From Balanoglossus misakiensis (Eukaryota; Animalia; Hemichordata): 64,000 nucleotides of DNA. This document shows, in pieces, positions 2,872 to 28,583 of the stretch. The position numbers and the translations under genes were made by a program. Location of the stretch: positions 868,001 through 932,000 of the forward strand of contig CM082598.2 of NCBI GenBank assembly GCA_040954595.2, written 5' to 3'. The notes under the pieces are model-generated. The model had not been told where the DNA came from and did no database searches. It saw nothing but the letters and a program-made list of their open reading frames with translations. Within the stretch, counting starts at the first letter, position 1; each line of letters starts with the position of its first letter.

Positions 2872-3954
2872 TCATGTGAATTTAGTGTCAAGTTTGGAAA
2901 TCTCTGCTTGACTTAATCGTAAGCAAGGAAGTCTATTTTTGGAATGGGTTTGTTGATGGGCCTTCAAACTGATATTCTGTCGAAATGCCCGACCACACAC
3001 AGCACATACAAAAGGTTTTTCATTTGAATGATGGGTGCCATTACTCATCACACAAGGAAGTCTTTCCTGTGAATGGATTTGTTGATGTGCCTTCAGGGTG
3101 ATATTCTGTCGAAATTCTCTCCCGCAATCGTTACATTTAAATGGTCTTATATTTGCGTGAATCTTAAGATGTGCTTTCAAACCACCAGTCTGTCGAAAAG
3201 CTTGACCACATTCAGGACATATGAATGGTCGTTCATTTGAATGAATGCGAATGTGAACTTTCAAATGGCCACTTGTAAAAAAACTTTTACCGCATTCACC
3301 ACATGCAAATGGTCTTTCATTTGCATGACTTCTTTGGTGAACTATTAGATGAGCACTTTGTCTGAAGCTTTTACCACAATCACTGCATGCAAAAGGTCTT
3401 TCGTTTGTATGGGTCCTCATGTGACCTTTCAGATCTGCATTTCGCATAAAACCTTTTCCACATTCATTGCATTCAAATGGTCTTTCATTTGAATGACTCC
3501 TGGAGTGAATTTTGAGAGTGCCTTTACTGGTGAAAGCTTTTCCACATTCTTTGCATTCAAATGGTTTTTCATTGGCATGCACCCTTATGTGGCTTCTCAG
3601 GTGGCTAATTTGTGCAAATGTTTTTCCACACTCACAACATCCAAAGGGTTTTTCATTTGAAGGAATTACAAAATGAGGAGGGTTATTGGCTTCAAATGAT
3701 TCACTTCTCTCCCTATGTTCTTGATCTGCATGGATCACTTGATGAGACATCAGATCAGCTTCCTGTTGAAATGTTTCATCACATTCACTGCATGCAAACA
3801 TTTCTTCATTTGAATCAATCTTCCCTAGAGATCCTGGATTGTTATTTGCTGTGATTTGAAGTTCATCCAAAACTCTCATGTTGTCAGTAATTGGAGTTGC
3901 CCGTTCAGTTGTGATGTGACCATTGCATATAAGCGCTTGGATGATCAGTGACAC
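2872..3954 (-). CDS. C2H2 zinc-finger protein (9 fingers), large terminal exon; true start uncertain
   Basis: The ORF holds 9 CxxC-x12-HxxxH repeats (one isolated, seven tandem, one terminal). The frame stays open upstream to about 4077 and the ORF-track start is GTG, so an upstream exon is likely. Confidence 0.9.
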   Translation of the reverse strand: MSLIIQALICNGHITTERATPITDNMRVLDELQITANNNPGSLGKIDSNEEMFACSECDETFQQEADLMSHQVIHADQEHRERSESFEANNPPHFVIPSNEKPFGCCECGKTFAQISHLRSHIRVHANEKPFECKECGKAFTSKGTLKIHSRSHSNERPFECNECGKGFMRNADLKGHMRTHTNERPFACSDCGKSFRQSAHLIVHQRSHANERPFACGECGKSFFTSGHLKVHIRIHSNERPFICPECGQAFRQTGGLKAHLKIHANIRPFKCNDCGREFRQNITLKAHQQIHSQERLPCVMSNGTHHSNEKPFVCAVCGRAFRQNISLKAHQQTHSKNRLPCLRLSQAEISKLDTKFT

Positions 3955-4085
3955 ATCTGTTGGATGGAAATAAATATTCAGTTCTTCAGAGTCAATCCAT
4001 GTTTCGTGATTGGAGTTCTCGAAATCTCTCTGAACTATGACAACTAAACAAATTGAAGCCCCATCATATCTGTATATTTACTTAC

Positions 4086-6414: not shown

Positions 6415-9400
6415 TTATTCTAATCCTGCTGTCTTGGCTTTGTCCTCCATTGCTTTTTTGTTGAGTGCCGCTCGGTGCAGAGCTTGACGTGCCAAGTAGT
6501 TTTCACGTCGGATTTCATCCTTGACTTTCTGTGGTACATCCGGAATCAAATAGTCTATCAGCCACTTGAGAAAGAATACCACATGCTATAAACAGACAAA
6601 AAAATAACAGAATTTAGTGTCAGGGACTTCAGAGATTCTATGAATGATCTCAGTTTGTATCTACTGAGTTATGTAAAAGATGCTGTTATTTCCGGGGGTA
6701 CTACTTCCTATTATTGTTAGAAAGTATTTGGTATCATGAATATCTTTTCGCAGTCAGTCTAAGATCTTTTAAAGCTCACCTCAAAAACGATGACAAATGC
6801 CAGTTTGGAGGCTATGACGTGCCAATACTGGATGTTACGACCATATGGGATGGGTCCCCAAGGAGGCAGGCGATAATCCTTGTATCTGGTGAAGTGACGG
6901 ACGATACATAATTGTTATAAGTGCAAACCCTTTGATCAAGAACTCTCCTTTTTAAAAGGGACAAAGTCTCTCTCTTGCTGCCCTTTTCCCATTAATTATG
7001 TTTGATACAAGACACTGATTATGTTAATTTAAATGTGGATATATCGTGAATCAACATTCAGACTCACACCTTCCATCTCACTTGTCTTGTATCAAACATA
7101 GTTAATGGAAAAAGGGCAGCAAGAGAGCGACTTTGTCCCTTTAAATGTCTATGATTCTATCAACATCCCAACAATTACAGTTTGAAAGAGTCGTGTTAGA
7201 AAGTAAGACAGTTCATACCTGCAGATATCAACAACTCCTTGACCAGTTTGAGGCCAACTTTGATCCTGAGGTGCAGTCCCATCTTGAAAGTCGGTCGTGT
7301 TGAAATAAGCTAAGGAGTTGTCGACATAGCCGTACAAGCTTCCATCGTCGCTGTATTGGTAGATGTAGACAAGTCTTGGGATGAATTCCGATGTCAGTGC
7401 GATCACTAGAGCCTGAAAAGACAAGTTGAAGTGACTGTTCAGTGTTTGTGCCTCATCTATTGCAAGAGTACGCAACTATGCACACACCATCTAGGATGGC
7501 ATCAACAGGGGAGGATGTGCCCCCCCTTTGCTAGAATATTGGGGGGGGGGGTTCCACTCTGGCAAGGGGGAATGTAATATCTCCAACATGTGAGTGACAT
7601 ATTTTGTACCCCTTAAACCCTTCCACCCCCAGTTCCCTCTTTAGAAGTCCAAGCGTACCATAGAAAGTAATGGCTTTGGACTGAACCATGGTGGTGAAAG
7701 GGTGAAATAGAAAGCAGACACTTACATTGGTGACCACAGCTAGTTTCCCAACACCATCCAAGATGCCATACCAGATACCTGAAAGAAAGTTTGTGGATCG
7801 TCAGATACTTGTCATCAGCAGAATAGTATCAGAGGCAAAGGCATTATCTAACGGTCAAAATCAGGTTACGAGGTACTTCAATGTGTTTCTTCAGCACGTT
7901 TATACTTGACACAGGATGACAACCACTGAGAATTTAGGCTGTACCAGACAGAACTAAGGGGGGGGGGGGTTTACTCACCAATATCTTGAGCCCTAGCAGC
8001 CATTGGTCGTCTCATCTGAGACGTAAACTTATAAGCATCCAGTCGAATCTCTATGATGTTGTTTAACAGCGCAAACAGAGGAGCCAATGAAAAGGCAGCC
8101 ACGAAAAGAGTGACAAACCCAAACTGTAAAACTGGAAGGAGTCGAGATAAAATTGGAAAAGAATCAGTTGTGATGCTTTCACCCCTATTTGTCTTCCTGT
8201 GGATCGAGCCATGTTGCAACAACATTGAATTGGTTTAAATGGAAGACAGCTTTCAGTACAATCAGATACACAGATCAATAATACTGAGAATAAAGCCAAA
8301 AGTTCCACCTAATGTCCCCTTAACATTCTGTGAATGCCAACACTTACCCATTTCTAGATATTCACTGAAGAGTCCATGTCTGTCTGGTGGTCGCAGATCA
8401 TAATCCTGTTCCCATCTGGTATACTCATCTCCCAATTGTTTTTCTCGTTGCTTTGCATCTCGTGCACTCCACCAATTCAGAAATTTTCTGCATGAAAACA
8501 ATAATTGTAGTGGTCGTAAACAATGTCCCTGACACTAAAATTTAATTGAAGCAGGTAGAAAAGGTTTTGTGAAACTCTGACTTACGGGAGTATGATTTCC
8601 AAGCAGTTGTTGTAGGCTTGTTTTCCGACCATAATGATGGCAAGTTGAAGACACAGCTCTGGTAAGCAACCGCCTGGGTCACACTGAAAGTGATCACAAA
8701 GAGACAGGTCATGAATGTGGCAGTCTCATTTTGAAATTAAAGAATAGGCATTCTTATTGTTATTCATATACAGTATGTCTATTCCCAGATGACTTTTCAA
8801 ATTGTAACTTGCATATCCTAATTCCAACTGTACTTTCAAACTGACTCTGCATAAACTTGAAGGTAGAAAAGAGTTTTTACAAGTTATTGTGAAAAAAAGA
8901 TGACTTTCATCTCACCTCTTCAACTCGAAGTCCAAATATGGTATCATAATCACCAGGGTAACCATTCTTCCTGAATAAATTGAAAACAGACAAGTGTTAA
9001 AGAATTTGGGAACGTTAAGGAATCTTGGCCAAAGTTTTTGGAAACAGCACAACAAAACTGTAACGCTGTATTGACCATTTGGCTCCTGAATGTACAAATA
9101 TAGACTAATTCAGTACAGAACTATTTACCATGGAAACACAATGCATTTAATACGGCATCCTGTATTCACACTGAACAGCAAGGATAATCATACAAGGAAA
9201 ATATGAATGTCTAACTTACGGTCCTTTCAGGAAAGCGATGTAGAAAATCGAGGTGTAGTAGTTGACGAAACTGAAGAGATACATCTTGAAAGTAAAACTG
9301 TCTTCCCACATTGTCTCAGTACGGTGCATTTCTGTCGAATCATCAAACATTCAAAATATAATATTATTATTAAAATTTCATTAGAGCCAGGTCATTATGG

Positions 9401-12400
9401 CCACAACTTTAAACACAATGTTATTGCAAACTAGAATATATTCCTGTTCCCATTTTGAAACTCTTAAAACTCAGTATATGTAATTGATATTTGAAATGAA
9501 GAACTCACCTAGATCTGTCAGCCACACTGCAATCTTTTCATAGATCTGTGAACATGAAGGATAAAGACCAAATCATTTAATCAGCTGAGCGTTTTGTTTG
9601 TAAGACATCATTCATTTCATATGGTTATACATGTAGTTGACACAAAAATACTACACATGCAAGCATACAAGAAAGTGAAGTTGATACACCTCCCCCCCCC
9701 AAAAAAAAACATTCAATAGACATCTATAAAATTCTGTTGATTTTCTATAGATCTTTATAGAATTTCTATGGACATCTATAGATTTTTATGTAGTTTTGGA
9801 TACTTTTTCTATGGTTTGTGTACTTACCCTGTTGAGAATCAGAATGAGGACCAAATTGATCAACGATGCAGTACAGGTTGTGATGAGCGAAGAGTACGTA
9901 CTCGCCAAGTTGTCACCCGTAGCTGCGATAGCGGCGGACACAGCGATACGATAAACGATGACGCCAAAAACGCATGCGAGCACTAAACAGATCTGAAACA
10001 GGAATAGACTGAATCATAAGCTCAGATAGTACATGTAATTATTAGTGACAATATTCAAAGATTTTGTCTGCATGGAAAATGAGAACGTTTTTTGAATTTG
10101 ATGAACACCAAGCTCAGATAATGTATGTGTCAATATTGCCAAATTTTATCTACGTGGAGAATGAGATTATTTTTGGATTTGATAAACACCAATGGAGTCG
10201 CTAACTCAACACTTAACTGTCATGATAGTGTAATACCCATGTTTGAACCTCATAAATTTCTGAATATTGAAAATTATTCACTTGTGGTTTTACGTGTGTG
10301 TGAGAATGTTTATGAAGAAGTGTGAAATAACTGATAACTCCAATAACATCAATCGCTGTTCACTTTTCTTTGCACTCCAACTAAAATTCCATCAGACAGT
10401 CAATAGCATGACGCGATATGAAGATGGATTTCACATACCATAAAGATGATACCCGACACTGATGATACAACACGAGGTGCTTTCTTGTACCCATGGATCC
10501 ATTTCTCCTCCAGCTGCCATGACAACGGCGGGATGAAATGGCGTGCAAATTGTTCATTTGCAATGAAATAAAATGAATGAGTAGAATGGTGACTGGTTTG
10601 AAGTATGTAATGGGCGATGGCTGCTGATTGTTGATACAACACCATTTTCAAAGTACATGTATGTTTTATGAAAACCAAATAAGTCTCTCAATTATATGAT
10701 GTAAGATTACATCTGTTCACAAAATTTGTATTTGATGAAGAAGGGAACGTCAATTTAGAACATTTGAGATCACAATTTTCAACTCGTGAATTGGTATGAT
10801 ATTGCTGACTTTGAAAATGGTAGCAGTTGTCAACAAACAGCAGAAAAGTTTGTCTGAAAGATTCAATCGCGTTATGGCTCTCTGTGATCTCCAACCCTCA
10901 CCACCAGTGGCTAGGGTCGAAGGTCTCAGAATGCCAGAGCATGACAGAATCTTTCAGTCTACAGACAAGGTCTGTTTATTTATATACGCTCACCATCAGA
11001 ATAATAACAACCGAGGCACCAACCAATCGTGGAAATCTGTCCTTTAAAGTTACATGAGGAACTTCATCCTGTAAAGTCGTGTTTGATATGATAACACAAT
11101 TTTCACACAAAGTTAGACCTACTAACTCTTTAAACATCTCTATTTTTCCCACCAAAATGTTGATCGTGTACATAGGAACAAGTCTAAAGTACAGAGAGGT
11201 CTGTCCAACCACTCATAACACAATATCACAGAATATGAACATGTCATTTTCAGATGTGTAAAGTGCTGCAGTCTATTTTTGGATCGATTGAACATACCTT
11301 GGTGACAGGATTGATACGAGTATCTGGAGCACTGGCTTCAAACTCTGGCCGACAGTTTTCCTGTTAAAGAATAAAATTGTACGATCATTTGCAAGATGGC
11401 AAATCTGATAAACCGATCTTCACAGTTTTTGTCAAAATGTACCGGTACATGTATAACCAGACTCTTTGATTGCATACTTCAGATCCAACTACAGAAATTT
11501 CTTTCAGGGATTTGATCTATACTGCAGTGCGAGTCACAACACTGTCAGCATGCATTTCCATGGTAACAGTTGCTAAGCAATCAATACATACCTCTTGTTC
11601 CTCAAAACCAAACAAATCCCAGTCATACTGTATCTCATATTGTTTTCTCTTCCAGAATTCCAGGAACAATGTTGCTGTAAAAAGAATGACCACCAGAACA
11701 GTTTAATCCACTAGGCATTCATCCTGCTGATCATTCAGACAACCTCATTAATGTAAGTATCTGTTCAGTCAGCGATCAACCATGATTGATAATAATGAAT
11801 ATCAAATACCAACAGCAAGTTACTAAGCAAAACTACAAACTGCTGTGATAAAACTATAATAATCCTACTTGTGTGAGAAATTAGAGTCACAGATTTCAGA
11901 AGGAAGTAAAAAGAGGAAGAAGTGTAGATTTGCAAAATGCATTTTGTAATCAGACAAAACTACACTTAATTTATTTCTGGCTTTTATAAAGCACGATACA
12001 TACATTCTATGCACTGTTAATTCTAGAAGTTTGATGTTTTGAGTGTGGGAAAATTGGAACAAAAGTACATCTAGTTGAGGTGTGCCATGGGAAAATGTTT
12101 TCTGCAAAGTTTACTAAAACTGGACGTTTTTGAGGACATTTATTAGATTTTACAGATGTCTACATGTTTAGATTTAATGTCCAGGAGTTCTTGAAAAATA
12201 AACAGTTATCGGTTTTTGTTACCAAAATGGCAAAATTGGAATTCAGTAAATGAGAGAAAAACTATCAAACGACATTCATGCAAACAGAGTAAAATCAAAA
12301 GGAGAATATCAGGAGATTTTTGTTACCAATTCTTTGTTTATCAATCTTACCCCACAAACCCATGACTGCAGCAAAAATAACTGTAGCTTGGTTGTCAAAC

Positions 12401-15400
12401 AGACCAGCCATCTATCACACCCATGCAGAAGCAAAGAAACCACGCCAGACGAAAAAAGGAAATATTACAAAATTGGTGTTAATAAAATAAGCACTTAGGG
12501 AACATGCAGCAGACAGTGTTATGTGCAAGTGGGATAAATTCCTGCAGGAAATAAAGAAGAAAGAGAAGATTAAATTAAAAAGAATTCAGGGTTAGGTTTC
12601 TTTGGTTGTGTATAAAAACATCCAAGCTAAAGCAGATCAACGCAACACGTGCACTGGGGTCTGAAATCTCTCTTCATGTGAACACAAAGTTTGGGCACCT
12701 CTAGCTGCAGAGATTGTAGCGGGTGCTGCTAGGTTGACTGGTGTGTTCACAGCATTACCACTACAAGGCCATGTGCATAAGTGCCCTAGCTATCAACTTT
12801 TTGCAGCGGATCTGTTTTCAACTTACTCTAGATTTCTGATTGGCAGACAAGATGTCCTTTTCTATGAAATCTGCAAGCTACCATGTGACCACCCAGTAAA
12901 CAGGCGACTATGGTCACCCCTCTGTCTTATATCCCTCCCCTTAACCCCCCCCCTCCCCCAAGTAGGGCAAGTATTGTCAACTTTTCGTAGAAAATAGCTA
13001 ATTTCTGTATGATAAACTAGGTCCCTATACCTGAACGTATAGACTAATATACATAGAGAAAAGTCTGACAGAAAAGAACAGAGCAATTAGCAACAAATAT
13101 GTCCAGAGTAATATTCACTTAGGCTGCATTCACAAACACCTCTGGAGGGGGGGACGGGAGAATTCAATTTTTTTTACCGTTAATTTTCACATGCCCCCCT
13201 CAACAACCTGAAATATTTTCAAATCCCCCCCTTCCGAACTGCTAAAATTTTCAAATCCCCCCCCCCACCCATTTTCTTTCACAGAGCAAAACACATCACC
13301 TATCTATCTTGTAAAAAAAGAAAAACAGCGCTCCCATGAAAAGAATTTGAAACTGATGTACCCCCTCACTGAACATTGTTTTTATTTTTAAGTTTTTGTA
13401 TTCTGTGTTGGGAGACATTGTAAACCGAGAATTGAAGGGGGTGGGAGGGGGTGTCCCCCTCCTACATAAGAAAATTTTATAAAATACAGAGCTCAAAGCT
13501 GCATTTTAATGAACCCGGCAAAAGCAAATTAACTCAACTACCGGTATGTTGGGGAGGACAAATTTAACCGTCGCCGCTCAAAGTTATCATGGGGTGGGGG
13601 CAAATCCCCTGACCTGGAACACTAGACAAACCAGTCAATGATTGAAAGGTGCTGATGAATGGAGGGGGTGGGTGTGGGAGGGGGTGTCCCCCTCCCACAT
13701 TAGAAAATTTTGTAAAATAAAGGGCGCGAAACTGCATTTTTGTGGACTCAAAATAAATATTTAGTCGTCAAAGTTTTCAAGTCCCCCCCTTTCAGTCCCT
13801 AAATTATTTCAAATCCCCCCCCTTACATACCCTCAATTTTTTCAAATCCCCCCCCTCAATTCTCCCGCCCCCCCCTCCAGAGGTGTTTGTGAATGCAGCC
13901 TTAGTATGCATGCATTATAGTTAATGGTAAGTACCACCCAAGTAGTTTACAACTGAACCAGTTTCGAATAATATCATCGAATAATATCATCGGAAGAAAA
14001 TAACATTGAACTATTTCATGACGTTTCAGATGGCAAGGTTGGAGGCAGGGTCGGGGCGAGCTACTCACCCCAAAGTGCCATTAAAATGGAGAAGAAAGGT
14101 GCAGCATAGCTATCAAAGACACTACTTATCTGGAAGTAAAGCACACAGAAATTTAACCTGGTCCAAAGCTGTGAGTTTTCAAAGTTTAGATTCTCTTTTA
14201 TCCACTTGCGTAAAAGTAAGCATGTTTGTAACATTTGGTTGGATGCTATGAAAATATGCGTCCAGTTTTTTTCTGCAGAAATCACTGAATGTTTCTCGAT
14301 AAGATTTGATTTGTAGGCATTGAGTGAACACAGAAATCACTGACTGGTCTCCTCTGCAGAGTTTCCACTGCTATTTTATATTCATGATGCAACGATTGTA
14401 GAACTTTAACCCTTTCACCCCCATATCCCTCTATAGAGGTCCAACTTTACCATACAAAACAATGGATTTGGACCAAACCATGGTGGTGAAAGGGTGAAAG
14501 TAGAACAAATGAAACCGCACACCCTCTTTTGAGAACATCATGCCTCATTAATATGCAAAGCAATGAGATCCCTGCAGAAGACACCAGTCTGTGATATATA
14601 TGTACATCCTATGTCTACAGAGCAAATCTAAAAACCACAGCTCGGCCAGCCTAAAAGATATTAGATCTAAATGTTAGTTTAAACAACAATACATTACTGC
14701 AGCAACTGCAACCATCCGCAAAGACAATGCTGCAACTAAAAGAGCTAGCAAAGTAAAATATATTTTTAATAATGAAACAGTATTTTAAAATTACATTACA
14801 GAGACTAACCACGACCACAAGTCTATATTAGTCTTTGGAAATAATTAGTGCTCTGGAAAAAAGAATGATGGGACTATGCAAAACTAAGAAAGAGTTTACA
14901 CAGAATTTCTGTCGATGTCATTCAACAGAAGTTGTCATACATACAGAAAGCATTTCAGAACAGCAGAATCGCTGTATATCTCACAACTGTTATCTCGCAT
15001 ACTAGAAATGACTACAAAGTCTCAAAGTTAAGAGATTGTTTAAAATTTTTGTTTTGGGGATACTGTCCAACCTCAGTATGTCACTTATTTAGAGAACGGT
15101 TATTATACCATCACTTGCACTGAAAGTTACTCAAAGATGATGTAAAAACTCTCTTAACTACTGGGCCAAGTTATTGTTACATTTCTATAAAAGTCCTTGC
15201 TTTCTCAATGTCTTTGGAGCAAAGCTTCCAGTTTCTTGCATGAGTTGTAAATAATGAGAACACTGTAAACATTAGTGAACAAGATATTTAGTAATAATTA
15301 GGTGTTATGGGTGTGGGGTACAAAAGATGCCACCAGCAAGTCGTTGTAAGTTATCTGCTGCGAGAGATCAGTAACATTATCTATATGCAAAGAAATACAT

Positions 15401-18400
15401 GTGACATCATTAGTACTGCAGTTATTTAGAGATAACATTGAACACCATGCGCAATGATTAACTACAGCAAGGCCTATTATAAGTATATTATTTAGTGATA
15501 ATACAACAAGTCAGGTAATGGATAAAATACAAGAGATGCCAAAAATCAACAAGTTATCAGATGAGTACTATAACATCCTGGATGCAAAGAAAAACATGTG
15601 ACATCATTAGTACAGCATTATTTAGAGAAAACACAGAACATTATGCGTTAAAAGAGCAATGATATCAAAGTACTGTAAACTACAGCAAAGCCTATTATAA
15701 GTATGTTATTTAGTGATAATAAGTCTCCGGTAATGGATATGATTCAAGAGATGCTATAGGCCATACGTGATCAGCAGAATACGAACATGATTCTAGATGC
15801 AAAGAAATACGCATAACATTAGTTATTTAGTGATAAAAATGTTTGTGATGACAAAGTAAGTAACTGTAGGTTATCTCTGGATAATTTAGTGACAAAAGTT
15901 TGATGGCATAGTGGCGTTATTAATACTTGCTACTCACCCCACAAAGATGAGATAATAGCCAATATAGGTGAGAAATAGTTATCAAAGAGAACAGCAAACT
16001 GTAAAGAAAGCAAAAAGGTGAAATGACAGAGGATGACAGGGTTTAGTGGAAGTGGGAGATCGGAAATAAGGATAGATGTAAGATTTGCTCAGCAGGATAA
16101 TTCATGAAGATAAGACAACGGAGAAAATGAATCACAGATAATGTTAAGATGAGATTCTTTGATTGGTTTGAAAGATGTAGCATAAATTTTCACCCATATT
16201 TTAATACATCGCACCTGAAACACAAAGTTAATTATGAAAGCCTAAAGATATATGTTGAGAAAAGTGCCGTTGGTACAAATGTGTAATGTTTATCTGGTCT
16301 TAAGCTACTAATGCCGAGTAATATTTACATGGTGTTGTAAATGGCCCATGTGTTGCTGATGATTGTTAGTTTGTTTGTTATCATCGTCATCTTTAATGGT
16401 GTTTAAAATTACAGGAACATCTATGCAATGCTTGTCAAAATCAAATAGGGGGCTTGCCATTCCCGGTCCCCAGCGCACCCTCACGTCCCCTGATGTGTCC
16501 TTTCACACCAACAAACGCCAACAGACGCCCCTCTAATGAGCTAATTAAGCTCATGAATCATAATTAGTCACTGGCCGTGCATTCCAAGTGACAGACGGAC
16601 CTTCCTGGCATCTACAAGACATTGATTGTAAACACAAACAAACATGTATAATACATATTTGTTTTTGTATAGAAGTGATTCTTATCACAACATTTGCATT
16701 GAAATTATACTTTCGCAGAGCACAACTTTGGCAAAGCAGCAAGAATAGAAGATCTGGATTGGAAGAAAGGAAGAAAGAGAGGGCTTGTTAGTACAAGTGT
16801 GCGTTCGTGGTCTTTGTGTGTGTGTACATACCCCATAGTGTCATCACAATGGACAAGATCGGCGTCGCCCAATTGTCGAATAACAAGGAAAGCTAAATTC
16901 AAAAAAGAAGAATTAAACAGCATGCCTAACTGTCAATGTAAGTAAAATATATTTGTAGGTTGCACATGATTGTCACCTGAAATGAAACTTTCAGGTGAAA
17001 CATTTTGTATGGAATGTAGTAAACATATTAGATAAGCACAACAAGACATCAGCTGGAACCCTTTCACCCCCAGTTCACTGTAAACGGGTCCAACTTTTCC
17101 ATGGATAACAATGGATTTGGACTGGACCATAGTGGTGAAAGGGTATGTTCAAGATGTGACCATACCTTTGTGTAGATACAACTCTCATAGAGCAACCAGT
17201 AACCACAGCGTTCATTACATAAAGGACACATTGTAGTGTTACCCATTCCTTCTTCATCGCAAGTTTCCTGTAAAAGAAAAACAAAAGTTATACCATCCCT
17301 CGTACTGCTGCTTGTTTCACTGTTCTATAAAGTTCTATAGCATTCTGATGAGTCTATAGAAAGTGGTCAAAAACTACACAGAAATCTATAGATGTCCATA
17401 GAATATCTATAAACTTCTAAAGAAATTCATTAGGTTATAGATATCTGTAGAATATCTCTAAACATATATAGAAATTTCATAGGCTATAAAAATCTCTAGA
17501 TGTCCATAGAAATTCTATAAACTTTTATAGAAATGATATAGTCTATAGATTCTATAGATGTCTGTTGAATGCTTTTGTAAGGGGGGATAAGTGAAAGTTG
17601 GAAGAATTTCTTACTATTTGTACAGGATTGTCGACCATGACAATGCATCCATAGATGAAACAACCGAGACCAATAATAGCTGCTGGAATCAAAGCACCTG
17701 TGTAGTAACCGAGCCATGCGAAGTATATTCCTATCTTCTCTCCAAAGTATTTCCTGTAATCGGGTCATACAAAGGTATCTTTCAAACTTCGTTTTCTTTT
17801 TATCTATCCATCATCTAACAGGCGAGAACCCACACACAGGATGAGGTACCCACCACTCCATTCAGGGTAAGAGAGAAGCAGGGGGAAGTATAGTACCTTG
17901 GACACAAGACCACAGCCATGCCAGGGCTCGAAATTATGCAATGATACTGGCATCCAGCCAAAAAAGGAAGGATTCAGCCAATCGGTACGTAAGTACACAT
18001 GTAGCCAATTGCATCTGCCATATTTGGGAACTTGTGCTATTGTTTGCAAGTGTATTGTGTTTGTCAGATGGAAGTCGATGAAGTATCAAAAGAGTTTTGG
18101 ATCTTTTGAAGTGGAGTAAATCTGTAAAAGTTACTGTGGCGATCGAAGTTGCCAGATTTAAAATCAACCAACCTGACGAGATCCAATGGTTGATTCTTGT
18201 ACCATCTTCCTGGTCTGGCCCATTCTTCATACAACAACTATAAAAAAGCACACGTCTGTGATTTCTAAGATGTTCTGAGGAACTTTCTTTCATGTGGAAT
18301 CATAGCTGAAAAGCCGACACTGAAGATTTAAAACTCTAATGAGATTATTTCCCCTCTATTGGCCTAGTAAGTGGATGAAATAATGAGTAATATTTGATGA

Positions 18401-21400
18401 AACTGTGACTTACTCGTCGGTCATTTTCACTTCCGTGAGTCAACATAGAATGCTCACTCGTGTATTTGCCTTCATGCAAAGGGAATGCTGCAGTGTACGT
18501 CCCGTTGCTTAACAAATGCTCAATTCCTGAAATGTAAGCCGTAAATAAATAAATGTGTGGTTCCAATAATATGGTTGATAGGTAGGACAAGAACTTTTTT
18601 ATTTTTAGGATTTTTTCAGAACATGTCCTCAGTTTATTGATCACATCATGTCATTTCTAAATCTCTTGTGGTTTTGCTTTTTCGTAGTATTTTTATCATG
18701 GAAATTACATATTTAAGAACAACTGTCCATCCAACTTACCAAACTTGTTTCCTTTGTCCGGATCATATTTACATCTTTCTAAGATTTCATAAACCTAACA
18801 AGTAAACAGTTTTTAAATATTGCTTAGTATTTTAGTTATCACTGAACCAGAAATTGGATTCACAAACTCACAATGTCACTGATAAAAAATACTTAACCCT
18901 TTCACCACCCTGGTTCAGTCTTAATAGATTGTGTTCTATGATAACATTGGGCATCTAAAGAGGGAACTAAGGGTTAAAGGGCTGCATACCACTAGTAACG
19001 TTCTCAGAACAAACATAAAAACTTACCATTCGACTTCTTTCAGATGGTGTAAAGAACTCATCCTGATTTTCAATATTGATAAACCTAGCAAAGAATATCA
19101 TGAAATGAGGAAATTAATAGACTGTAGTTTACAGAATATAAAACTGATCTGGGATTCCTTTTCCAGTTCTTTTACCCTTTCATCAACATGGTTCAGTCCA
19201 AACCTATTGTTTTCTAAGACCTCTAAAAAGAGAACTGGGAGGGGGATGAGGGGTGGAGAGAGTTTAGGAAGAATACTTACTCGTTCTGCCTGTCTTTCAT
19301 AAATGCACATGTAAAATAGTTGGGTTCGGGTTTGATGAAGTCATCAGTCAATTGAAATGGATTTGGCATCTTGTTACAACATGTCAGTTTTTCATCTTCA
19401 TCGATATCATTTTCCTGATGAGATAAAAACACGAGAACAACTAAGCAAGAGAGTAGCAGTTGTGAGTGTAATTAGTTGAAGTAAAAATATAACGCATCAA
19501 TAACACAGTGTTTTCATTTGGGTCTCTTTTTTGGCTCATGCACATAAGAAGCTCATTGCCCTTTGATAAATAATTTTGACTCTTAAAATATGCAGACAAT
19601 CTACCTGAATTGGCATCTTTAACTTCAGACCTTCAGCTGCTGTTGTCAGTACGTCCCAATTGGCATGGATCTTGACAAAACAAGTCTTCTGATCCGAACT
19701 TTTCTGTTAAAATAAAACATACATTCACAATGATCAATGGCGGATAATTATTTTCATAATAATGGTTCTTGTCTGACATAACTTTGATTTGAAACTCAAA
19801 TCCCGCAGATCATGTGACAAGATGCAGCCAATGACACCACTTGCATGTCACGTGACAAGATGCAGCCAATGACGCCCCATGATGAGACATAATTCTTCAT
19901 ACAACTTACACTAGCATCTTCTTCCTCCAGTTCAAGTTGATGTTCAGTCACAAGATTACTCTGAAATTCTTTCCTCCTTGCGTTTTTCTTAGACTCGCTT
20001 TCATCTTCATCTTTGTCTTTGTCCGACACTTCGTACGCCAAGACGTAGTCTATTCTTCTTTTTTTGTCTCGGAAATACAGCGTCTGTTTGGCACTTGAGT
20101 CTTCATCATCTGTCTGCAAAGAGAAATTTTAAATGATTCATGCGCATTACAAACTACAGTTTATTTAAAATAAACTTTGGCTGTAATTGTTTTAATGGAA
20201 ACTGCTATCTCCCAGCTGTCTCCTTCCTCAGCGACGAACATTAAATGAACAGAGCGAATCCAATTTGTATATCGTACCAGGTAATTTCTCACTGACAAAT
20301 ACACAGCAAATTCTCATGTTTACTTTATTATAATGGATCTAGACCAGGTTCCAAAAATAAACCATATAGAAATTAATGGTATTGTCCTATATAATGGTAT
20401 AGAGTATCAAGTGATGACATGTACAGCTTGGTCACATACGGGATAATATTTCACTGCAAAATTATTTTTCTTTTGTTTTCTTTCATGTTTCTGTTGTTGT
20501 TAATTGTCGTGGGAATATGAAACAAATTCCAGTCTGACAATGTTAACATGATGCCCTCTCCCCCTGTTTCATACAAGTACAGTTCAGTAACCTAAAATAA
20601 TCACTATATGATATTGATCAATTACTTAGAGGAACAACACAACCAATGTACATTCCTCAGTACAGTAATCTGCAATCTCAATTTAAGGACAAAAACAACA
20701 GTTTTGACTTTTGTTTAATTTCAGGTCAGAAGATGTTTCTATTTTCCTGCTTATTGACAACGGCTGAACCAAACGTCTGCTGTTGCTAGGTCCTTACACC
20801 AGTCTTTCATATGGAACGTGTAAATGCAAACAACAATCACAGGTAAGATATTTATTTATTTATGAAACTTAATTAGCGATTCATGTGATGTCAGCATACT
20901 TCTTGCCTCACACACCCCATTTTTTTTTCACTGAACAAAAAACAGTGATTGTCAGAATGACAGGAATGTCCACGCGTAACAAAAATATACCTTTACTTTT
21001 TTATGTGCATGTTTTTGTGCAAATCCTAGTCAGTGTTTGTCCCTGGAATAAATTGTAGTGAAAATGACTGGAACTAGAGAATCTGCAGAAAACATGCAGA
21101 AAAAAACACATTCTTCAACAATTACCTTCGCCTATTAAAATACACACCCCTGATTTGAATAGAGACTTTCTCTCAATAGAAGCAAGAATACAATCAAGCA
21201 TTGTTTGCCGCTAGGGTCTCCATGCAGCAAAGTGTATACATGTACATGTATATAGTCAGTTCGTCAGTAAGTCATACCGGAACAGATTATGAGTGATCTA
21301 TTGCTGGCTTGATACATTTATAATCAGACAAAAATCTTGCATTAACTGACACTATCAAAACACTAGAACAGTGTCTAGTCTGTTAGTGTCTGTGACCAAT

Positions 21401-21966
21401 AACAAATAACATTGCCCTGGACTCTGCCCGTCACGCCCAAGTTTCTGTGAATGGTCAATACTTGCCTCGACCTTGATGTTAAGAAGCTCGTAGCTTCTCC
21501 GAAGCTCTGTTGGCGGAGGTTCTGCCATGGCTCGAGCACTGGCGCGAGAAAGACCGCTAAGATTCTATGATTACATAAAGATGAATAACACTACTGTGGC
21601 CGTAACAAGCACAGTTGACCACTTAACAGTGACGTCAGAATATTAATAGAGGACACCTTGGTAAATGATTAAAGTACACAATAGCATCTACAGAAAGGCC
21701 GTCAAACTGAATGTTGGGTTCGACTCTCAGTGGAAGTTTATGGTGGGCATAGACCGTAAATGCGACTGGGCGTGGCATGTACGGTTTGGTCTGTACCATG
21801 TGAGATAGGGGTGTGTTTACCTTGGCAAATTATGATGCAGTATGCTAGAAATACTGAAATCTAGGGACCTTGGGTTGAAGTCTTCAGTTTAAGGGTTTTA
21901 TCTTCCCTATTAATGAACAAATTTTTGATGTGGACATACATACATGTACACACATACATACATACA

Positions 21967-21998
<32 letters not shown>

Positions 21999-24900
21999 CA
22001 CACACACACACACACACACATACATACATACATACATACATACATACATACATACATACATACATACATACATACATACATACATACATGTATACATACA
22101 TAATATGTTGTTCGACTGGACCGACACAAAGTGCTCGATACTAAAGTAGAACGGAATATAAAGTAAGGGTAGCTGGAGAAACGGTAGGCAGTATAATCTC
22201 CTGATGAGTGAGGTTCCTGATGAGGAAATTTAAGGTTACTAGGTTAGGGCTAATAAAGTTGCTGGTGCATTTCACTCACAGTCACACAAACAGTTGTAAG
22301 CAATTCACTGGCCTGTTTGGCAGTTTTATGTCTTTGTAAGTTACAGCAAGTCAACCTGATCGGCAGTAAATTTTCTTTCAATGAAGTTTGTACATATAGG
22401 TCACTCGTTTGTGGTTTTTGTGTTAGCAACTGACAACTTTGCAGATCACAGCTTGATCTAAAATGCATACATAATATTGATAGAGATGATTTTCTAGAAA
22501 TTGAAAGTGTGTGTCAAAAGTGATTGAATGATTCTACTGAACATGCAAAACATACAGTTGTCGGAAATTACATTGTCACTGCTTTTGTTTTTTGATGATG
22601 GCTCAACTTCAAGATACTTAATTGCTAACTGAGAGACCTTTCATTAATGGGGACCCAGACATATACTGGTTTATCTCCTTCTCTAAATGTCCTCGCACTG
22701 TGAAAGGCTCATGGCCGAATCACTAACCTCGCAACTCAAATCATGCTATCGTGTATACCAAGAGTGACTACGTAACTTGTTAACACTGTATAAAAATAGT
22801 TCATTTTGTTTGTCCAGAAAAGAAAAGTTGAAATCCTTCTAACGTACAGGAGTAGAGTGTTCGCAAAAAAGTGCAATACAGTTCAGATGTCAAAAGTAAT
22901 GGTGTTTACACGATCAACAATTAATTTCACGTTCCCGTCTCTCATCAGACCTGATCAAACGAAAAATTTTCTCTACTGCATCTGTGAACGTACCTGAGAA
23001 ATTTCCTCCAAATCAGGATCATTAACAACAAGCGTTACGTGAGCACTGTCCATATTCTTTCATTCAGTGCAAACAAACCTTTCCCTGCTTCCACAAATCA
23101 ATCGAGATCAAGTCTCCCCGCAGTTGCATTTACTGTACAGCGTAGTTGCAACAGAAAAACTCTAGCAGAACACACCCCTTTGCTTTAGGGACAGCAAGCT
23201 ATTCAACCAAGTTATGTAATGAGGTGAATATCTGTACATAATAATGAAAGCGTTCTCTCAAATTTGGCTTTTGTTTGCCACTAAACAATGCACTATTCTT
23301 CAGAAATATGACAATCAAACCTCAGTACATCTTCAGCTGTGTTATTTAAATGATTGGGTCATTCTTATGGTTCAAATATTTGCACCCTGTGTTAGAAATT
23401 AAGGAAAGCAAACTACAGCTTAGAAGGACCTTGAGTTTTACAGAAGAAGGACCTTGAATATTGTAAAACTCAAGGTTACTCACGTAAACTACTTGTCCTT
23501 CAGACTGTACTGTACATGTACAAAAAAAAAAATGAGCAAAAAGCCTTTGATCCATAATTTGTTGAATAATATTGATATACAACTTGACACTGAACAGGAT
23601 GAATAATTGTTGTATTTTATTACGGTGCAATCAACACAAAGTTTACCAGAAAACTTGTGTAAATGTACATGTAATACAAGGCAACTTGATCGAACTAAAC
23701 GGCATGCAATACACAATCTAGTTATCATACAACAAACATCTCAAAACTCAGTTTGCAAAGTATGCTGGGACGATCTCATTCTCACTGTATATCGCCCTCT
23801 AGAGGCAGAACAACCATTAAATATACAAGTGAAATTTAACTTTTTTTTCCTGGACAGTTAAAACAATATGTCAGTCTAATGATGATTCAGCTAGCAATGG
23901 TTACCATAGCAATCAAAGAGTTTACTTACCGAGATAGCCAGATGTACAGCTTCTGAATCTTCAACCAGTTTCTTGCTTTCAGCCGCATTCTGACTCTCCA
24001 ATCCGATTGGTGTTGCTATGGCTGCATCTGTTTGAGTTTCGTTACCGTTCTCATTGACTGTTGGGTATAGATTCTGATTATCTGGTGGTGGTGGAGATGG
24101 TTGTCCATATGCTTCTAGGCCTGCGATAATAGGAAAGGATCAGTGTCAAGTCTTTTCTCAAATTCATATACATGTTGTATAAAGTATATCAATCTGTGAG
24201 GGCCACAGTCCCTCAAGAAAGATAGTCAGGAATCGCTTATTGGTCGGACGTGTGAACTAGAGGATTAGCTGTAGGATGCGCATTATGGTCACGTGACCAT
24301 CTTAGAGTTGCGCTTTTTCCTTGGAAGCAAGCGACAGTCGCTCTACTATCTACGATGATTTTCCCGATATGTTAGTTATGTTTCAAGTATATTCCAATTC
24401 AGTGCATTAAATTCATACGACATGTTTTTAAAGACAAGGGAAGTGCACATTTCGCGTATCAAATCGCTTCTTGTAGCACTCACAGGCATTGTAATTTTCA
24501 ACTGTGGATTGTGGGCATACACATTTTGTGGGCATTTCTGGGACCGCTTTAATTGTACCCTTTTTTCGATGTTATTTTTTCTCGATAAATGTTGTTTGTG
24601 CTCCCGTTATTAACATGTGACATTTACGTAATTGTGTTTATTACAACATGACTGTTTGGTAAACAGCAGAGCAGTAATGTGCTAATCCTGTTTTGTTCCA
24701 AAGATGACAATCGATGACAATCAGATCAACCACAGGTCGAGTTCACAACCTTTTGTAGAAAGACCCACCCATCTTATCTATCTCATCAACAAACAGACAG
24801 AAGCACAGTCCTTAATAAAACTCCCACATAAATACAACCTGTTGCTCAGAACATTTTAAGCAATCCTCAAATTGACTCCAACTTTTTATAAATCTTGTTT

Positions 24901-27900
24901 GTTAGAGGGCACACTGCCCAGGCCAGAGCTGACCCATTTCAAACATAACTGATCTGGACTATACGGTAATACGCCGTCACTCAACAACCCTGATATCCCT
25001 ATTACGGTCAAATTCCCACCAAGAGCAAAACGACAATTCCAGTGTACGTACCAATGGGATTACTTATACCACCATAATTGTCACTAGAACCTGCAGTGAC
25101 AAGTTGATACGCCTCCATGGTATCATTGCTAGTCCTCCGATATGAACCATTCATCTCCAAAACCACATGGAATTACAATAAGGATCACACCTGTACCAAA
25201 TCTATCCAAAACCACGTACACTGCAGGAGTCTGACCTGCCTACTGAGTTCTGGTATCTGCACTTTGGGTCACTGATCCACTTCAGCGCAGACTTATGTAA
25301 TTTGATGGAATCTTGTAACTTGGTTACTACATTGAACATTAACTTCAATTTTATTTGAGTTGAGCAAATCTAAGTAATCATAGATAATTCAAGATGCACC
25401 TGCGATTGTCTAAAATCTACAAGTATATACCTCAAGCAACAATCTTCTTCAAAACTATATGTAGAATGTAGGAACATATGTCTGTCATTTGGCAAAATGT
25501 AGGGTAATCTAAAGGTCCATCATCACCTGACCACAACAAAGGTTCAGGGTGTGTCTTTTACTAAAAAATATGTTAATGATTCCATGATAAGACAAAAACA
25601 CGTGTGGTAGTACTGCAATTTACATCGCCATCAATTCATCATAATGTTCAATATTTATTGTATTCGCGTACATGTTTTGATCGACAACAGGTAATATAGC
25701 TGTACCAATCCCCTCCCGATCTGTCATGTAACTGGACGGTGAAATGTGTGTTAGGGTCAATGGGTGTGTCTTCAACATACAAGTATAATGACTAACAAAT
25801 GTAGAGGGTGTTATCTTGGAGAAGGTCAGTCCAAGGAGAGTGGGTGATACTAGCTTAGTCATTTGAAATCTGAGTGCTGGATTCTGAACTACTCTTGAAA
25901 TCTCATGTGACTTTTGAATCTGTGACATACCATACTGGTTTTAAAGACAGCACATTGTTACAGACAATAACCACACACAAAGGGCTGTCAAAAACTATTT
26001 GTATGATAAAGGATGTACACATCACAGATGTCAGCAATGTGGAGCCTCTTTGATGTATTAAAATTTCTATAAATAAATGATGATCATAGACAACATCATG
26101 CATAAGCACTGCCCAAATAACCCTTTCACCCCCATTTCTCTGTGCAGGGGTCCAACTTTACCATAGAAAACAATGCATATGGACTAAACCAGATAAAAGA
26201 AATTGTTTCTTAATATTATGGCAGCATTTATGGTTATGGCCCCTTATGATGGTCTATTGGGGTGATTTAAAAAGGCGACATCAAACAGGGACCTGTCTGT
26301 AAAGACAACATTGCCTCATTATCAAGCAACCATCAGATAAAACACAAGACTGAGATATGATTAGGGAATGGGGGACCCTGATATGACAAAAAGCATTAGA
26401 GCTGACGTCCTAGTTGTGTTATTAGCAGTTATCATTGACAGGTCGATATAATCAACAAATGAACATCCTTCGTTGAAAACCATACAAATAGACATACTTG
26501 ACATGAAATTACTCACTGTCTGCGTGGCAATGAGTTCTATAATTTAAAGATAATTACATGTCTTGTTAGTGAATTATGGGCGATAATTACCAAGGGACAT
26601 GAAGGTTATAATAATATGAGGCCTATTTTCATTCTCTACGAATTCTGAATTCTAACTAGCAATGTGTGACAATTGCATTCCTGCTTTGCTCTGTGAACAT
26701 ACACATCATTCCTGAATATATTTTCATGAATATACCATAACAGCTACCTCTATTTTATTTTAATCAAGGAACTAATAAAAATTGGTGCGAAACTGTAGGC
26801 CATCTGTTTATCTGCTTACAAAATAGACAGTCCTTGGAAATATATTTTTATGCATTGCCAAGAAGATACTTGTTTTGCCCATATGTTTTTGTTTTTTATT
26901 ATCTGCATAATCTGAAATGAACATACTGTTGACTTCCATTTTGGAGTTGTCCATTTCGTTCACTGTAAAATAAGACCAGAAGCTGACACACAATTTATAG
27001 CAATGAAACAATTATGAAAGTAGTAGGGTTAAGTAGATATGAGAGGTGAAACAACCATAAATATTTGAAGTTTTGAGTGATGTAAATAAAGATCAGTAGC
27101 AACCAGAAACGCCAATTACTTCTCCATAATCATTTGACTCTCAAAGTTCTGCAAAACTGTACTATTTCCCCTACTGTTTTGGGACCACCAAATACTCAAT
27201 AAATTAACCCTTCATCACAAACTCAAGCCCCCACCCCCAATCATTTGCACCCACCCCAACTAGACTGCAACACAGTTGACACCAACAGATATTGTGTGTT
27301 AATACTACAAGTTGACAAATCTAGGTGCAGGATTTTAAATTAGCCTTTGCAAGGCAAGATGATATTGTTACTGATCCCTTGATCTCTGTGATCTCATAAT
27401 CTGGTTAACACAGGTCATGAATTATTCCTGTGCTAGGCACTAAAACATTTATTGTTATGTCATTATGCTGTAAAATTCAGTGATATTGTGTTTATGAAAT
27501 TTACACATGAATGAGTAGAAATGCTTGCAATTTCAGTACCAAACAAAAGAACTGCTAAAAAGTGTTAATGAACATTAGGAATGATGCTGTAGCTTAGCTG
27601 TATAAACCTGCTAACTTTCTTTTATTATGCAAAATAAATTCAGTCTTTGATGCTGTTTAGTATTTAGATATGTAGTTCATGTATTGTACATTGCAAATGA
27701 ACAACTCTAACATAGGCATGTCCCAATTGGTGTTTGACTATGATCGGGGATATAGTGAAATGAATTAGCTGTGGAATGTACATGGGTGTGTATAGTGCAA
27801 TTTCACTTGTGTTATTGATAGTCAAGCAGACACGCCCCAAACAAGATCGGTTGCGCCACACCCAGTCCAGTGACCCGAGGGTCGGTCACTACGAACAGAA

Positions 27901-28583
27901 AATACAGCCAAAAAGCTCAAAAGTCACGTTAAGAATTCGTTCCCATACAATAGTAATCACAGAAGGGAAGAAGCCCTACGTTACGTAACAACGCATAATT
28001 TCGATAATACAATGTGTGGGCCATTCACGCTGAACTTGGGCTGTACCATTATATGGTGGGGAGGGCCCTATTTATGGTATGTTTTGATGTAGGCCTATGC
28101 CATGTCGATTACACACCCAGTAGGGGAGTAGGTAAATATGTCGGGATTATTTCATGAAACGGACACGATCGTCTATATCTTGTCAGAATATTGTAGGTTT
28201 TCCTTCGTTGTATTTCACAACAATGTCACTAAAACTGCGAACTTTGACCCTAATTCACAAAGGCCTGGAAAGTGTTAATGAACGACTTCAAAGTGTTAAG
28301 TACAGTTGTACATATGAGATATGTTCATTACTTAAAAACGTACGTGCAATTTTTTAAAGTGCTCGGGATATATATGAATCGATCACTTACCGATCGGTGG
28401 GGGATTTTGATCACTTCCCAAATTTTGCATTTGGTAGTTATCGAATCCAGTGACATTAGCCATGTCTTCGTCGCTGAAATCTCCAAACGCTGCATGAGAT
28501 GCTAAGGGTACCCCACTACCCGACCTCTTAGCGTCATCGCCAGTGAGAGTTACTGCGCCGACTCTGTTAGACCCGAAGGACAT
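6415..28583 (-). CDS. Anoctamin/TMEM16 family Ca2+-activated channel/scramblase (ANO1-7-like), about 972 aa for the longest isoform
   Basis: Phase-consistent exon chain: 28583-28391, 24120-23930, 20113-19910, 19703-19605, 19414-19281, 19084-19027, 18794-18740, 18526-18414, 18237-18173, 17753-17615, 17267-17166, [one 61-nt exon], 11674-11592, 11360-11298, 10513-10439, 9992-9828, 9545-9509, 9331-9220, 8970-8916, 8683-8586, 8487-8348, 8131-7979, 7778-7726, 7412-7219, 6885-6780, 6585-6415. Family motifs present: [88 protein letters not shown]. Confidence 0.95.
6953..7144. mobile_element. Non-autonomous inverted-repeat element (MITE, Kolobok-like ends) in an anoctamin intron
   Basis: About 60-bp arms AAAGGGACAAAGTC...GATACAAGACA (6955-7013) and TGTCTTGTATC...GACTTTGTCCCTTT (7084-7142) with about 3 mismatches and TTAA-like flanks. 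Confidence 0.75.
7613..7706 (+). mobile_element. piggyBac-like MITE copy (~85 bp)
   Basis: CCCTTCCACCCCCAGTTCCCTCT...CCATGGTGGTGAAAGGG. Confidence 0.8.
12351..12411 (-). CDS. Anoctamin mutually exclusive TM2 exon D ([20 protein letters not shown])
   Basis: 61 nt, TAG acceptor, G|GTAAGA donor, phase 0 to 1, homologous to the anoctamin FDNxxTVxF...W segment. Confidence 0.9.
13119..13903. mobile_element. PIF/Harbinger-type MITE (element 13122-13900, TTA target-site duplication)
   Basis: TIRs GGCTGCATTCACAAACACCTCTGGAGGGGGGG...CCCCCCCTCCAGAGGTGTTTGTGAATGCAGCC flanked by TTA on both sides. Subterminal TTTTCAAATCCCCCC repeats and an internal duplicated block; no transposase ORF. Confidence 0.9.
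14069..14129 (-). CDS. Anoctamin mutually exclusive TM2 exon C ([20 protein letters not shown])
   Basis: 61 nt, TTCCAG acceptor, G|GTGAGT donor, phase 0 to 1. Confidence 0.88.
14406..14498 (+). mobile_element. piggyBac-like MITE copy (85-bp core 14410-14494)
   Basis: TTAA-CCCTTTCACC...GGTGAAAGGG-TGAA; the best-preserved copy in the window. Confidence 0.85.
15270..15900. repeat. Degenerate ~200-bp tandem repeat (about 3 units)
   Basis: ATGCAAAGAAA(T/A)AC..., TTATTTAG(T/A)GA(T/A)AA and GGTAATGGATA...CAAGAGATGC blocks recur near 15385, 15581 and 15796. Confidence 0.75.
15938..15998 (-). CDS. Anoctamin mutually exclusive TM2 exon B ([20 protein letters not shown])
   Basis: 61 nt, TTTCTTTACAG acceptor, G|GTGAGT donor, phase 0 to 1. 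Confidence 0.88.
16832..16892 (-). CDS. Anoctamin mutually exclusive TM2 exon A ([20 protein letters not shown])
   Basis: 61 nt, TTTAG acceptor with pyrimidine tract, G|GTATGT donor, phase 0 to 1. Confidence 0.88.
17057..17143 (+). mobile_element. piggyBac-like MITE copy
   Basis: CCCTTTCACCCCCAGTTC...GTCCAACTTTTCCATGGATAACAATGGATTTGGAC...GGTGAAAGGG. Confidence 0.8.
17320..17570. repeat. Low-complexity TCTATAG(A)-rich degenerate repeat (similar patch at 9715-9790)
   Basis: Many copies of TCTATAG, CTATAGAT and ATAGAAAT. Confidence 0.6.
18894..18981 (-). mobile_element. piggyBac-like MITE copy, reverse orientation, diverged
   Basis: TTAACCCTTTCACCACCCTGGTTCAGTC...GAGGGAACTAAGGGTTAAAGGG. Confidence 0.7.
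21466..21528 (-). CDS. Candidate alternative first coding exon of anoctamin ([21 protein letters not shown]), GC-AG donor
   Basis: GCCATGG Kozak context, 21 open codons, donor GAG|GCAAGT, phase 0 matching exon 20113. CpG-rich, with a TGACGTCA (CRE) site at 21630-21637 upstream. Confidence 0.6.
21936..22100. repeat. Compound (TACA)n/(CA)n microsatellite
   Basis: Long catacatacata run with an internal cacacaca run. Confidence 0.97.
22994..23053 (-). CDS. Candidate alternative first coding exon of anoctamin ([20 protein letters not shown])
   Basis: AATATGG start context, 20 open codons, donor CAG|GTACGT, phase 0 matching exon 20113. Confidence 0.5.
26118..26191 (+). mobile_element. piggyBac-like MITE copy, 3' truncated
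   Basis: TAACCCTTTCACCCCCATTTC...GGTCCAACTTTACCATAGAAAACAATGCATATGGACTAAACCA. Confidence 0.78.

Follow-up and report, generated by a model that had tools for sequence, protein, structure and literature searches.

A stretch of 64,000 nucleotides (nt) from the acorn worm Balanoglossus misakiensis (GCA_040954595.2, contig CM082598.2, positions 868,001 to 932,000; called the window below) carries on its reverse strand an anoctamin (TMEM16) gene with two tandem clusters of homologous exons. The first cluster holds four exons for the beginning of the second transmembrane helix (TM2), and the second holds two exons for the beginning of the third (TM3). Very probably one exon of each cluster enters a given transcript, which would yield up to eight variants of the protein core with predicted differences in gating. 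The exon anatomy, the logic of the reading frame, the orthologous alternatives in related species and the structural position of the exchanged segments are directly established. An original prediction, made from the letters alone, described a single cluster, that of TM2; it missed the second and older one.

Four exons for TM2

The TM2 cluster lies between two constitutive exons. All positions are those of the window, and all features in this list are on the reverse strand.

17166..17267 (-): constitutive exon upstream of the TM2 cluster, ending in phase 0 (gene model)
16832..16892 (-): TM2 cassette exon A, 61 nt; best match to the A-type of Ptychodera flava (12/20) and to Glandiceps X1 (14/20)
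15938..15998 (-): TM2 cassette exon B, 61 nt; intact, the Saccoglossus form being closest by BLOSUM; the weakest support of the four
14069..14129 (-): TM2 cassette exon C, 61 nt; 18/20 to the P. flava C-type, 14/20 to Glandiceps X2
12351..12411 (-): TM2 cassette exon D, 61 nt; 16/20 to the P. flava D-type; most like the single exon of other animals, with a weak acceptor
11592..11674 (-): constitutive exon coding for the inner part of TM2, with the equivalents of TMEM16A E425 and K428 (third Ca2+ site)

Each of the exons A to D is 61 nt long, flanked by AG and GT and free of stops, and the coordinates, lengths, splice sites and peptides first reported for them are all exact. Any one of them alone links exon 17267-17166 to exon 11674-11592 in an open frame. 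Skipping all of them causes a frameshift, and stops are present in all six pairs, all four triples and the combination of all four. The original prediction had held that none, two or three exons shift the frame and that A joined to B soon meets a TGA. This stands for skipping, the pairs and triples are indeed stopped, and the TGA falls at the sixth codon; the full set of four, in turn, is in frame by length and is closed by internal stops.

The four exons are not a chance pattern. Exactly four open AG-61-GT candidates occur in the 5.5 kb between the constitutive flanks, and these are A to D. On a profile built from 107 non-hemichordate sequences they score 23.5 to 37.6 bits, with D the highest, and the best of 200 dinucleotide shuffles reaches -22.5. 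A profile search across the whole window found no fifth copy, intact or decayed. Between the paralogs, 14-17 of 20 second codon positions are identical but only 3-11 of 20 third positions, a pattern which, read from the sequence, is that of old duplicates under constraint at the protein level. This is in line with the selection on all four exons that was first proposed.

The donors of A to D all score 9.1-9.9 on a matrix made from the constitutive exons of the gene, and their acceptors score 6.3, 12.5, 9.6 and -5.4, respectively. The acceptor of D is the lowest among 29 exons, and it is preceded by an 82-nt zone free of AG. Such a poor site would suit the explanation that the additional copies are out of use or were created by faulty assembly, with only one protein being made. 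However, the copies share just 29-37 of 61 bases and their flanks are unrelated, so that they are not a collapsed or duplicated piece of assembly, and for three of them clear orthologs are found in other species, each in isoforms of its own. This explanation is highly improbable.

The introns of the cluster contain other elements. The C-D intron includes an element of about 790 nt (13117-13905) with 48-nt inverted ends (96%) and internal repeats of G/C runs, likely a non-autonomous transposon. In the A-B intron, 16620-16440 (-) is GC-richer, has TAATTA motifs and folds locally at a z of about -4; it is a possible regulatory element. An 88-nt element with terminal inverted repeats, resembling a miniature inverted-repeat transposable element, has 13 blastn matches in the window (for example at 17144-17057 and 14495-14408).

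Two exons for TM3

A scan of all 23 internal exons of the gene model against their neighbouring introns found the TM2 cluster and one further pair, E1 and E2; the remaining 21 internal exons have no duplicates in neighbouring introns.

11298..11360 (-): constitutive exon for the TM2-TM3 loop, upstream of the TM3 cluster (gene model)
10994..11068 (-): TM3 cassette exon E1, 75 nt, phase 0/0; 15/25 to the P. flava E1-type
10854..10957 (-): predicted long RNA hairpin (104 nt), 36 nt past the E1 donor; z -7.5, single copy in the window, candidate splicing element
10621..10843 (-): second predicted stem in the E1-E2 intron, 10843-10808 with 10654-10621 (RNA folding)
10439..10513 (-): TM3 cassette exon E2, 75 nt, phase 0/0; 16/25 to P. 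flava, 17/25 to Glandiceps, 12/25 to Saccoglossus
9828..9992 (-): constitutive exon for the remainder of TM3 and TM4 (gene model)

E1 and E2 score 28-37 bits on a profile of non-ambulacrarian sequences, compared with -20.9 in 200 shuffles. Both clusters have the marks of exon duplication: adjacent homologous exons, equal length and phases, and intact splice sites. Each cassette of either cluster completes, on its own, the reading frame and the same structural element.

Alternatives in related species

Isoforms of related species were taken from protein-cluster listings with at most 15 members per cluster (clusters have up to 62), and the counts and absences given here are those among the matches listed. 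The ortholog of P. flava has 14 RefSeq isoforms that differ at three places only, namely the N-terminus, the TM2 slot and the TM3 slot. All 14 have exactly one 20-residue TM2 segment (A-type in six, C-type in three, D-type in five) and exactly one 25-residue TM3 segment (E1 in three, E2 in 11), and five of the six possible combinations are present. The four isoforms of Glandiceps have A- and C-types at TM2 and only E2 at TM3. Two entries of Saccoglossus share one TM2 form and differ in their TM3 forms.

In a wider sample, 160 ambulacrarian isoforms were examined, and 157 of at least 500 amino acids (aa) remained once three fragments were dropped. None of the 157 has two copies, or no copy, of the TM2 or the TM3 segment. 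Alternatives at TM2 occur in two of three enteropneust species and in none of 14 echinoderm species, where the 137 isoforms show one TM2 form per species. Alternatives at TM3 occur in two of three enteropneusts and 11 of the 14 echinoderms: at least six forms in Amphiura, at least four each in Patiria and Acanthaster, at least three in each Asterias species and in L. pictus, S. purpuratus, D. antillarum and Apostichopus, and at least two in each crinoid. The three echinoderm species lacking them are represented by one to three sequences apiece. Between two TMEM16 entries from S. purpuratus, each of 921 aa (AAY82885.1; NP_001073009.1/AAY82887.1), there are 17 differences, nine of which lie inside the 25-residue TM3 slot.

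Among 127 listed sequences from amphioxus, molluscs, a nemertean, a priapulid and corals, there is no within-species substitution in either slot. In Haliotis, isoforms P0098, P0339, P0087 and P0113 differ in short insertions immediately ahead of the TM3 segment, which suggests a separate alternative splicing of the same TM2-TM3 loop in abalone. None of the 79 loci from a scan of metagenomes has a duplicated slot exon, and the 11 of these checked for their nearest named relatives indicated no hemichordate or echinoderm ortholog. Transcript-derived short fragments gave 67 matches among 146 candidates, none above 47% identity and hence no hemichordate fragment.

At the protein level, the alternatives are conserved across species. 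Retention of orthologous exons, which the original prediction had named as a check, is clear for A, C and D and weak for B. Likewise, the claim that exactly one of A to D must be chosen is supported by the frame together with the orthologous exons found one at a time in RefSeq-predicted isoforms (well for A, C and D, weakly for B).

Exon B is the reason to consider that the TM2 cluster is real but three-way, with A, C and D in use and B silent or rarely used. No B-type exon is found among the 14 P. flava and four Glandiceps isoforms. The TM2 form of Saccoglossus is closest to B by BLOSUM (62, compared with 53-55 for the others), but this link has a bootstrap of 69 and an identity tie with D (11/20). 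Against a silent B, the exon is undamaged; its acceptor outscores the other three, its donor is strong, and FD, W and the length are kept. It shares 4-11 of 20 third positions with its paralogs and is thus old yet undecayed, and the only annotated TM2 exon of Saccoglossus has the SSLW end of B. A three-way cluster is therefore unlikely, and a four-way choice is the preferred reading.

Age of the clusters

The trees of the exons use 20 columns for TM2 and 25 for TM3. A bootstrap of 98 joins the E1-type exons, which come from three hemichordates and nine echinoderms, and one of 96 joins the four E2 exons of hemichordates. These groupings place the TM3 duplication before the split between hemichordates and echinoderms, and the TM3 alternatives of the echinoderms mark this cluster as older than that of TM2.

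The TM2 exons group by type: D at 97, C at 98 for the window and P. flava and at 50 with Glandiceps, A at 71, and B with Saccoglossus at 69. Exon D is the most outgroup-like. The TM2 duplication appears to have arisen in the hemichordate line, being seen only in acorn worms among the matches listed. Single 61-nt AG/GT exons are present in protostome-like contigs of the metagenome scan (L057, L071-L073), as are single 75-nt exons (L075, L078), and both units are thus older than their duplication.

Structural position and possible function

By alignment to mouse TMEM16A, the TM2 exon corresponds to A400-W419 and the TM3 exon to about 476-500, in (ac) numbering. In an AlphaFold2 model of P. flava X1 (mean predicted local confidence, pLDDT, 77), the TM2 exon corresponds to residues 451-470, which comprise the end of the extracellular helix ahead of TM2 (443-456), an FDN turn and the first 11 residues of the TM2 helix (460-489). 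The segment had been described as the extracellular half of TM2; it does include the start of TM2, and it also takes in the helix end and the turn. The TM3 exon (521-545) includes a strand of the TM2-TM3 hairpin (522-525) and the cytosolic half of TM3, namely the first 18 residues of helix 528-568.

The third Ca2+ site of TMEM16A uses E425 and K428 of TM2 (PMC7786149, PMC8640346). Their equivalents fall in the next, constitutive exon (11592-11674), in agreement with the earlier placement of the Ca2+-site residues in inner TM2. The TM3 exon aligns to the positions of K480, R484 and R486, which are reported as residues for phosphatidylinositol 4,5-bisphosphate (PIP2) in TMEM16A (PMC8640346, bioRxiv 10.1101/625897). 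The TM2-TM3 loop and hairpin are reported to relay activation in TMEM16F and TMEM16K (PMC13095661, PMC7786149).

In exons A, C and the B of the window, position 407 is W or Y and position 410 is P; 10 and five of 107 outgroup sequences, respectively, have these residues. At TM3, a basic residue stands at 484 in nine of 12 E1-type exons and at 485 in none, as in the R-D-R of TMEM16A, and at 484 in four and at 485 in 23 of 29 other ambulacrarian exons; these counts come from related sequences and are not independent. Since the K480/R484/R486 positions lie in the TM3 exon, where the basic residue moves from 484 to 485, its likeliest role is to tune PIP2 sensing and the coupling of Ca2+ and voltage. 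The TM2 exon most likely retunes the packing of the helix above the third Ca2+ site.

Alternately, the exons may be alternatively spliced with isoforms that behave alike, the copies persisting through split expression. Most changes are hydrophobic swaps, and the known ligands are invariant or outside the TM2 exon. Yet each exon type keeps its own signature across species (W407 in A, Y407/P410 in C, Q407/V410 in D, and the charge pattern that sets E1 apart from E2), and orthologous exons resemble each other more than paralogs do. Equivalent isoforms are thus rather unlikely.

How one exon may be chosen

At TM2, a wrong count of 61-nt exons would lead to premature stops, and such errors would likely be cleared by nonsense-mediated decay, while regulated splice-site choice would pick the exon. 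A length that is no multiple of three is reported for 60% of predicted human clusters, the commonest situation (PMC5740500). At TM3, 75 nt is divisible by three and the frame cannot enforce the choice of one of two. The pair would be beyond policing by frame, and exclusion there would probably depend on splicing regulation, perhaps through the folded E1-E2 intron (10993-10514), which folds far better than shuffles (z -5.8).

Two known mechanisms were rejected. Steric exclusion needs a donor within about 50 nt of the branch point, and the introns between the cassettes measure 833, 1808, 1657 and 480 nt. Exclusion enforced by U2 and U12 spliceosomes would involve AT-AC or U12 sites, and all sites here are GT-AG with ordinary donors.

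A third mechanism is pairing between docking sites and a selector. A single-sequence scan for it gave a best worst-case duplex of -18.2 in the upstream model (shuffled mean -17.5, best -20.2) and -15.8 in the downstream model (shuffled mean -15.4, best -17.3). The best upstream docking candidate sits in the dispersed 88-nt repeat.

Strength of the evidence

Several points weigh against the reading of two mutually exclusive clusters with different gating. Exclusivity rests on frame logic and on the predicted isoforms of relatives, which cover A, C, D, E1 and E2; B is left with no annotated counterpart in the closest relative. Those isoforms are XP_ models, and the listings are incomplete for presences and absences alike. 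Alternative forms in XP_ models usually rest on transcript alignments. The trees have few columns, and the bootstraps of the TM2 groups span 50 to 98. The TM2 exon carries no published Ca2+ or PIP2 ligand, and the functional steps are all carried over from mouse proteins about 42-44% identical.

With regard to mechanism, no docking-site/selector pairing exceeds shuffles. Even in the folded E1-E2 intron, the distance from the donor to the nearest candidate branch point is still 79-93 steps, above the steric limit, and folds of similar or greater strength (z -4.6 and -12.8) occur in two of the 23 other introns of up to 700 nt. Given this distance and the folding of other introns, the E1-E2 fold may be an old insertion. 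The fold at z -12.8 belongs to constitutive intron 7218-6886 and comes from a long inverted repeat.

The gene and its neighbours

The gene model has 25 exons from 24120 to 6415 (-) and is open until the stop. Further first exons extend the gene upstream.

6415..28583 (-): complete anoctamin gene, TMEM16, ANO3/4/5/6-like (gene model, protein similarity, Pfam)
28389..28583 (-): alternative first coding exon, tblastn 86% to P. flava X1-X5
25056..25154 (-): alternative first coding exon, tblastn 48%, E 2e-5, to P. flava X6-X7
21472..21528 (-): alternative first coding exon, tblastn 79%, E 5e-6, to P. flava X10-X13

The fourth N-terminus of P. flava (X8, X9, X14) has no match in the window. The "anoctamin-4-like" proteins of P. 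flava, Glandiceps talaboti and Saccoglossus kowalevskii are 84%, 77% and 70% identical, respectively, to the predicted protein, and identity falls to 52-55% in starfish and amphioxus. These values by themselves point to an acorn worm as the source of the window. Two exons of the window match the Pfam family Anoctamin (PF04547). The P. flava ortholog matches both PF04547 (E 2e-165) and the dimerisation domain PF16178 (E 4e-74). By these sequence matches, the second of them on the ortholog, the gene is a member of the anoctamin/TMEM16 family. The AlphaFold2 model matches TMEM16F (6QP6, E 1.8e-55, template modelling score 0.90 by target, 44% identity) and also TMEM16A. As modelled for P. flava X1 in place of the window protein, the fold is that of TMEM16, as in TMEM16F and TMEM16A.

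Immediately downstream of the gene is a C2H2 zinc-finger array at 2872-4077 (-). Other exons in the window belong to a Ras-family GTPase (32868-33185, -), a peptidase C78, UFSP-like (37631-37933, +) and coatomer beta (466-669, +).

Comparison with known systems

Tandem mutually exclusive exons are reported as enriched and convergent in ion transporters (PMC9741552, PMC8373072). Examples in ion channels are CACNA1C, GRIA2 and Drosophila slo (PMC8373072, PMC9741552, PMC5740500). They resemble the anoctamin gene in that internal exons for a membrane-embedded part are homologous, have equal length and phase and enter a transcript one at a time. Unlike these, the gene of ambulacrarians has a cluster of four exons next to one of two to six.

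The original prediction called the cluster Dscam-style. The layout does recall Drosophila Dscam1, with several tandem clusters in one gene and one exon used from each (PMC11802352). However, the docking-site/selector mechanism was sought in a single-sequence scan and not found, the exons are far fewer, and the product is a predicted channel or scramblase rather than a recognition molecule.

In vertebrates, splicing of TMEM16A/ANO1 (segment c, EAVK) also acts on the loop between TM2 and TM3, and the (ac) and (a) forms are reported to differ in PIP2 sensitivity (PMC8640346). That segment consists of four residues which are put in or left out, whereas the acorn worm exchanges homologous segments of 20 and 25 residues that are partly intramembrane.

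Searched by term, the supplementary data of two human catalogues gave no ANO gene, with CACNA1C and GRIA2 present, and the available text of PMC5703972 names no anoctamin. No description of such exons in anoctamins was found in the open literature, subscription papers being mostly outside its scope, and the original description of S. purpuratus TMEM16 may mention variants. The claim of novelty holds as far as the papers searched go, but the isoforms were already implicit, uncommented, in automated RefSeq models of relatives. Within the literature searched, the class of mechanism is familiar, and the family and the sites are new.

Significance

TMEM16 proteins share one fold, yet some are chloride channels, some scramblases and some both. 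It is still under study how the gate is coupled to the TM2-TM3 loop, to PIP2 and to the third Ca2+ site (PMC8640346, PMC7786149, PMC13095661). A bolder picture, tentative and rather doubtful as a whole, is that since the ancestor of echinoderms and hemichordates the swappable exons have served as a dial on the PIP2-sensing coupling element of the TM2-TM3 loop and TM3, which in a brittle star has as many as six settings, and that acorn worms added a four-way dial at TM2. Combinations would then shift channel-like against scramblase-like behaviour between cells, and an RNA fold would enforce the choice at TM3.

The natural variants seen across species differ in only 20 or 25 residues on an identical background and can thus be compared directly. 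Sea urchins and starfish, both of them laboratory animals, have the TM3 cluster. With this gene, anoctamins would join the ion transporters that have tandem mutually exclusive exons, and would do so twice in one gene.

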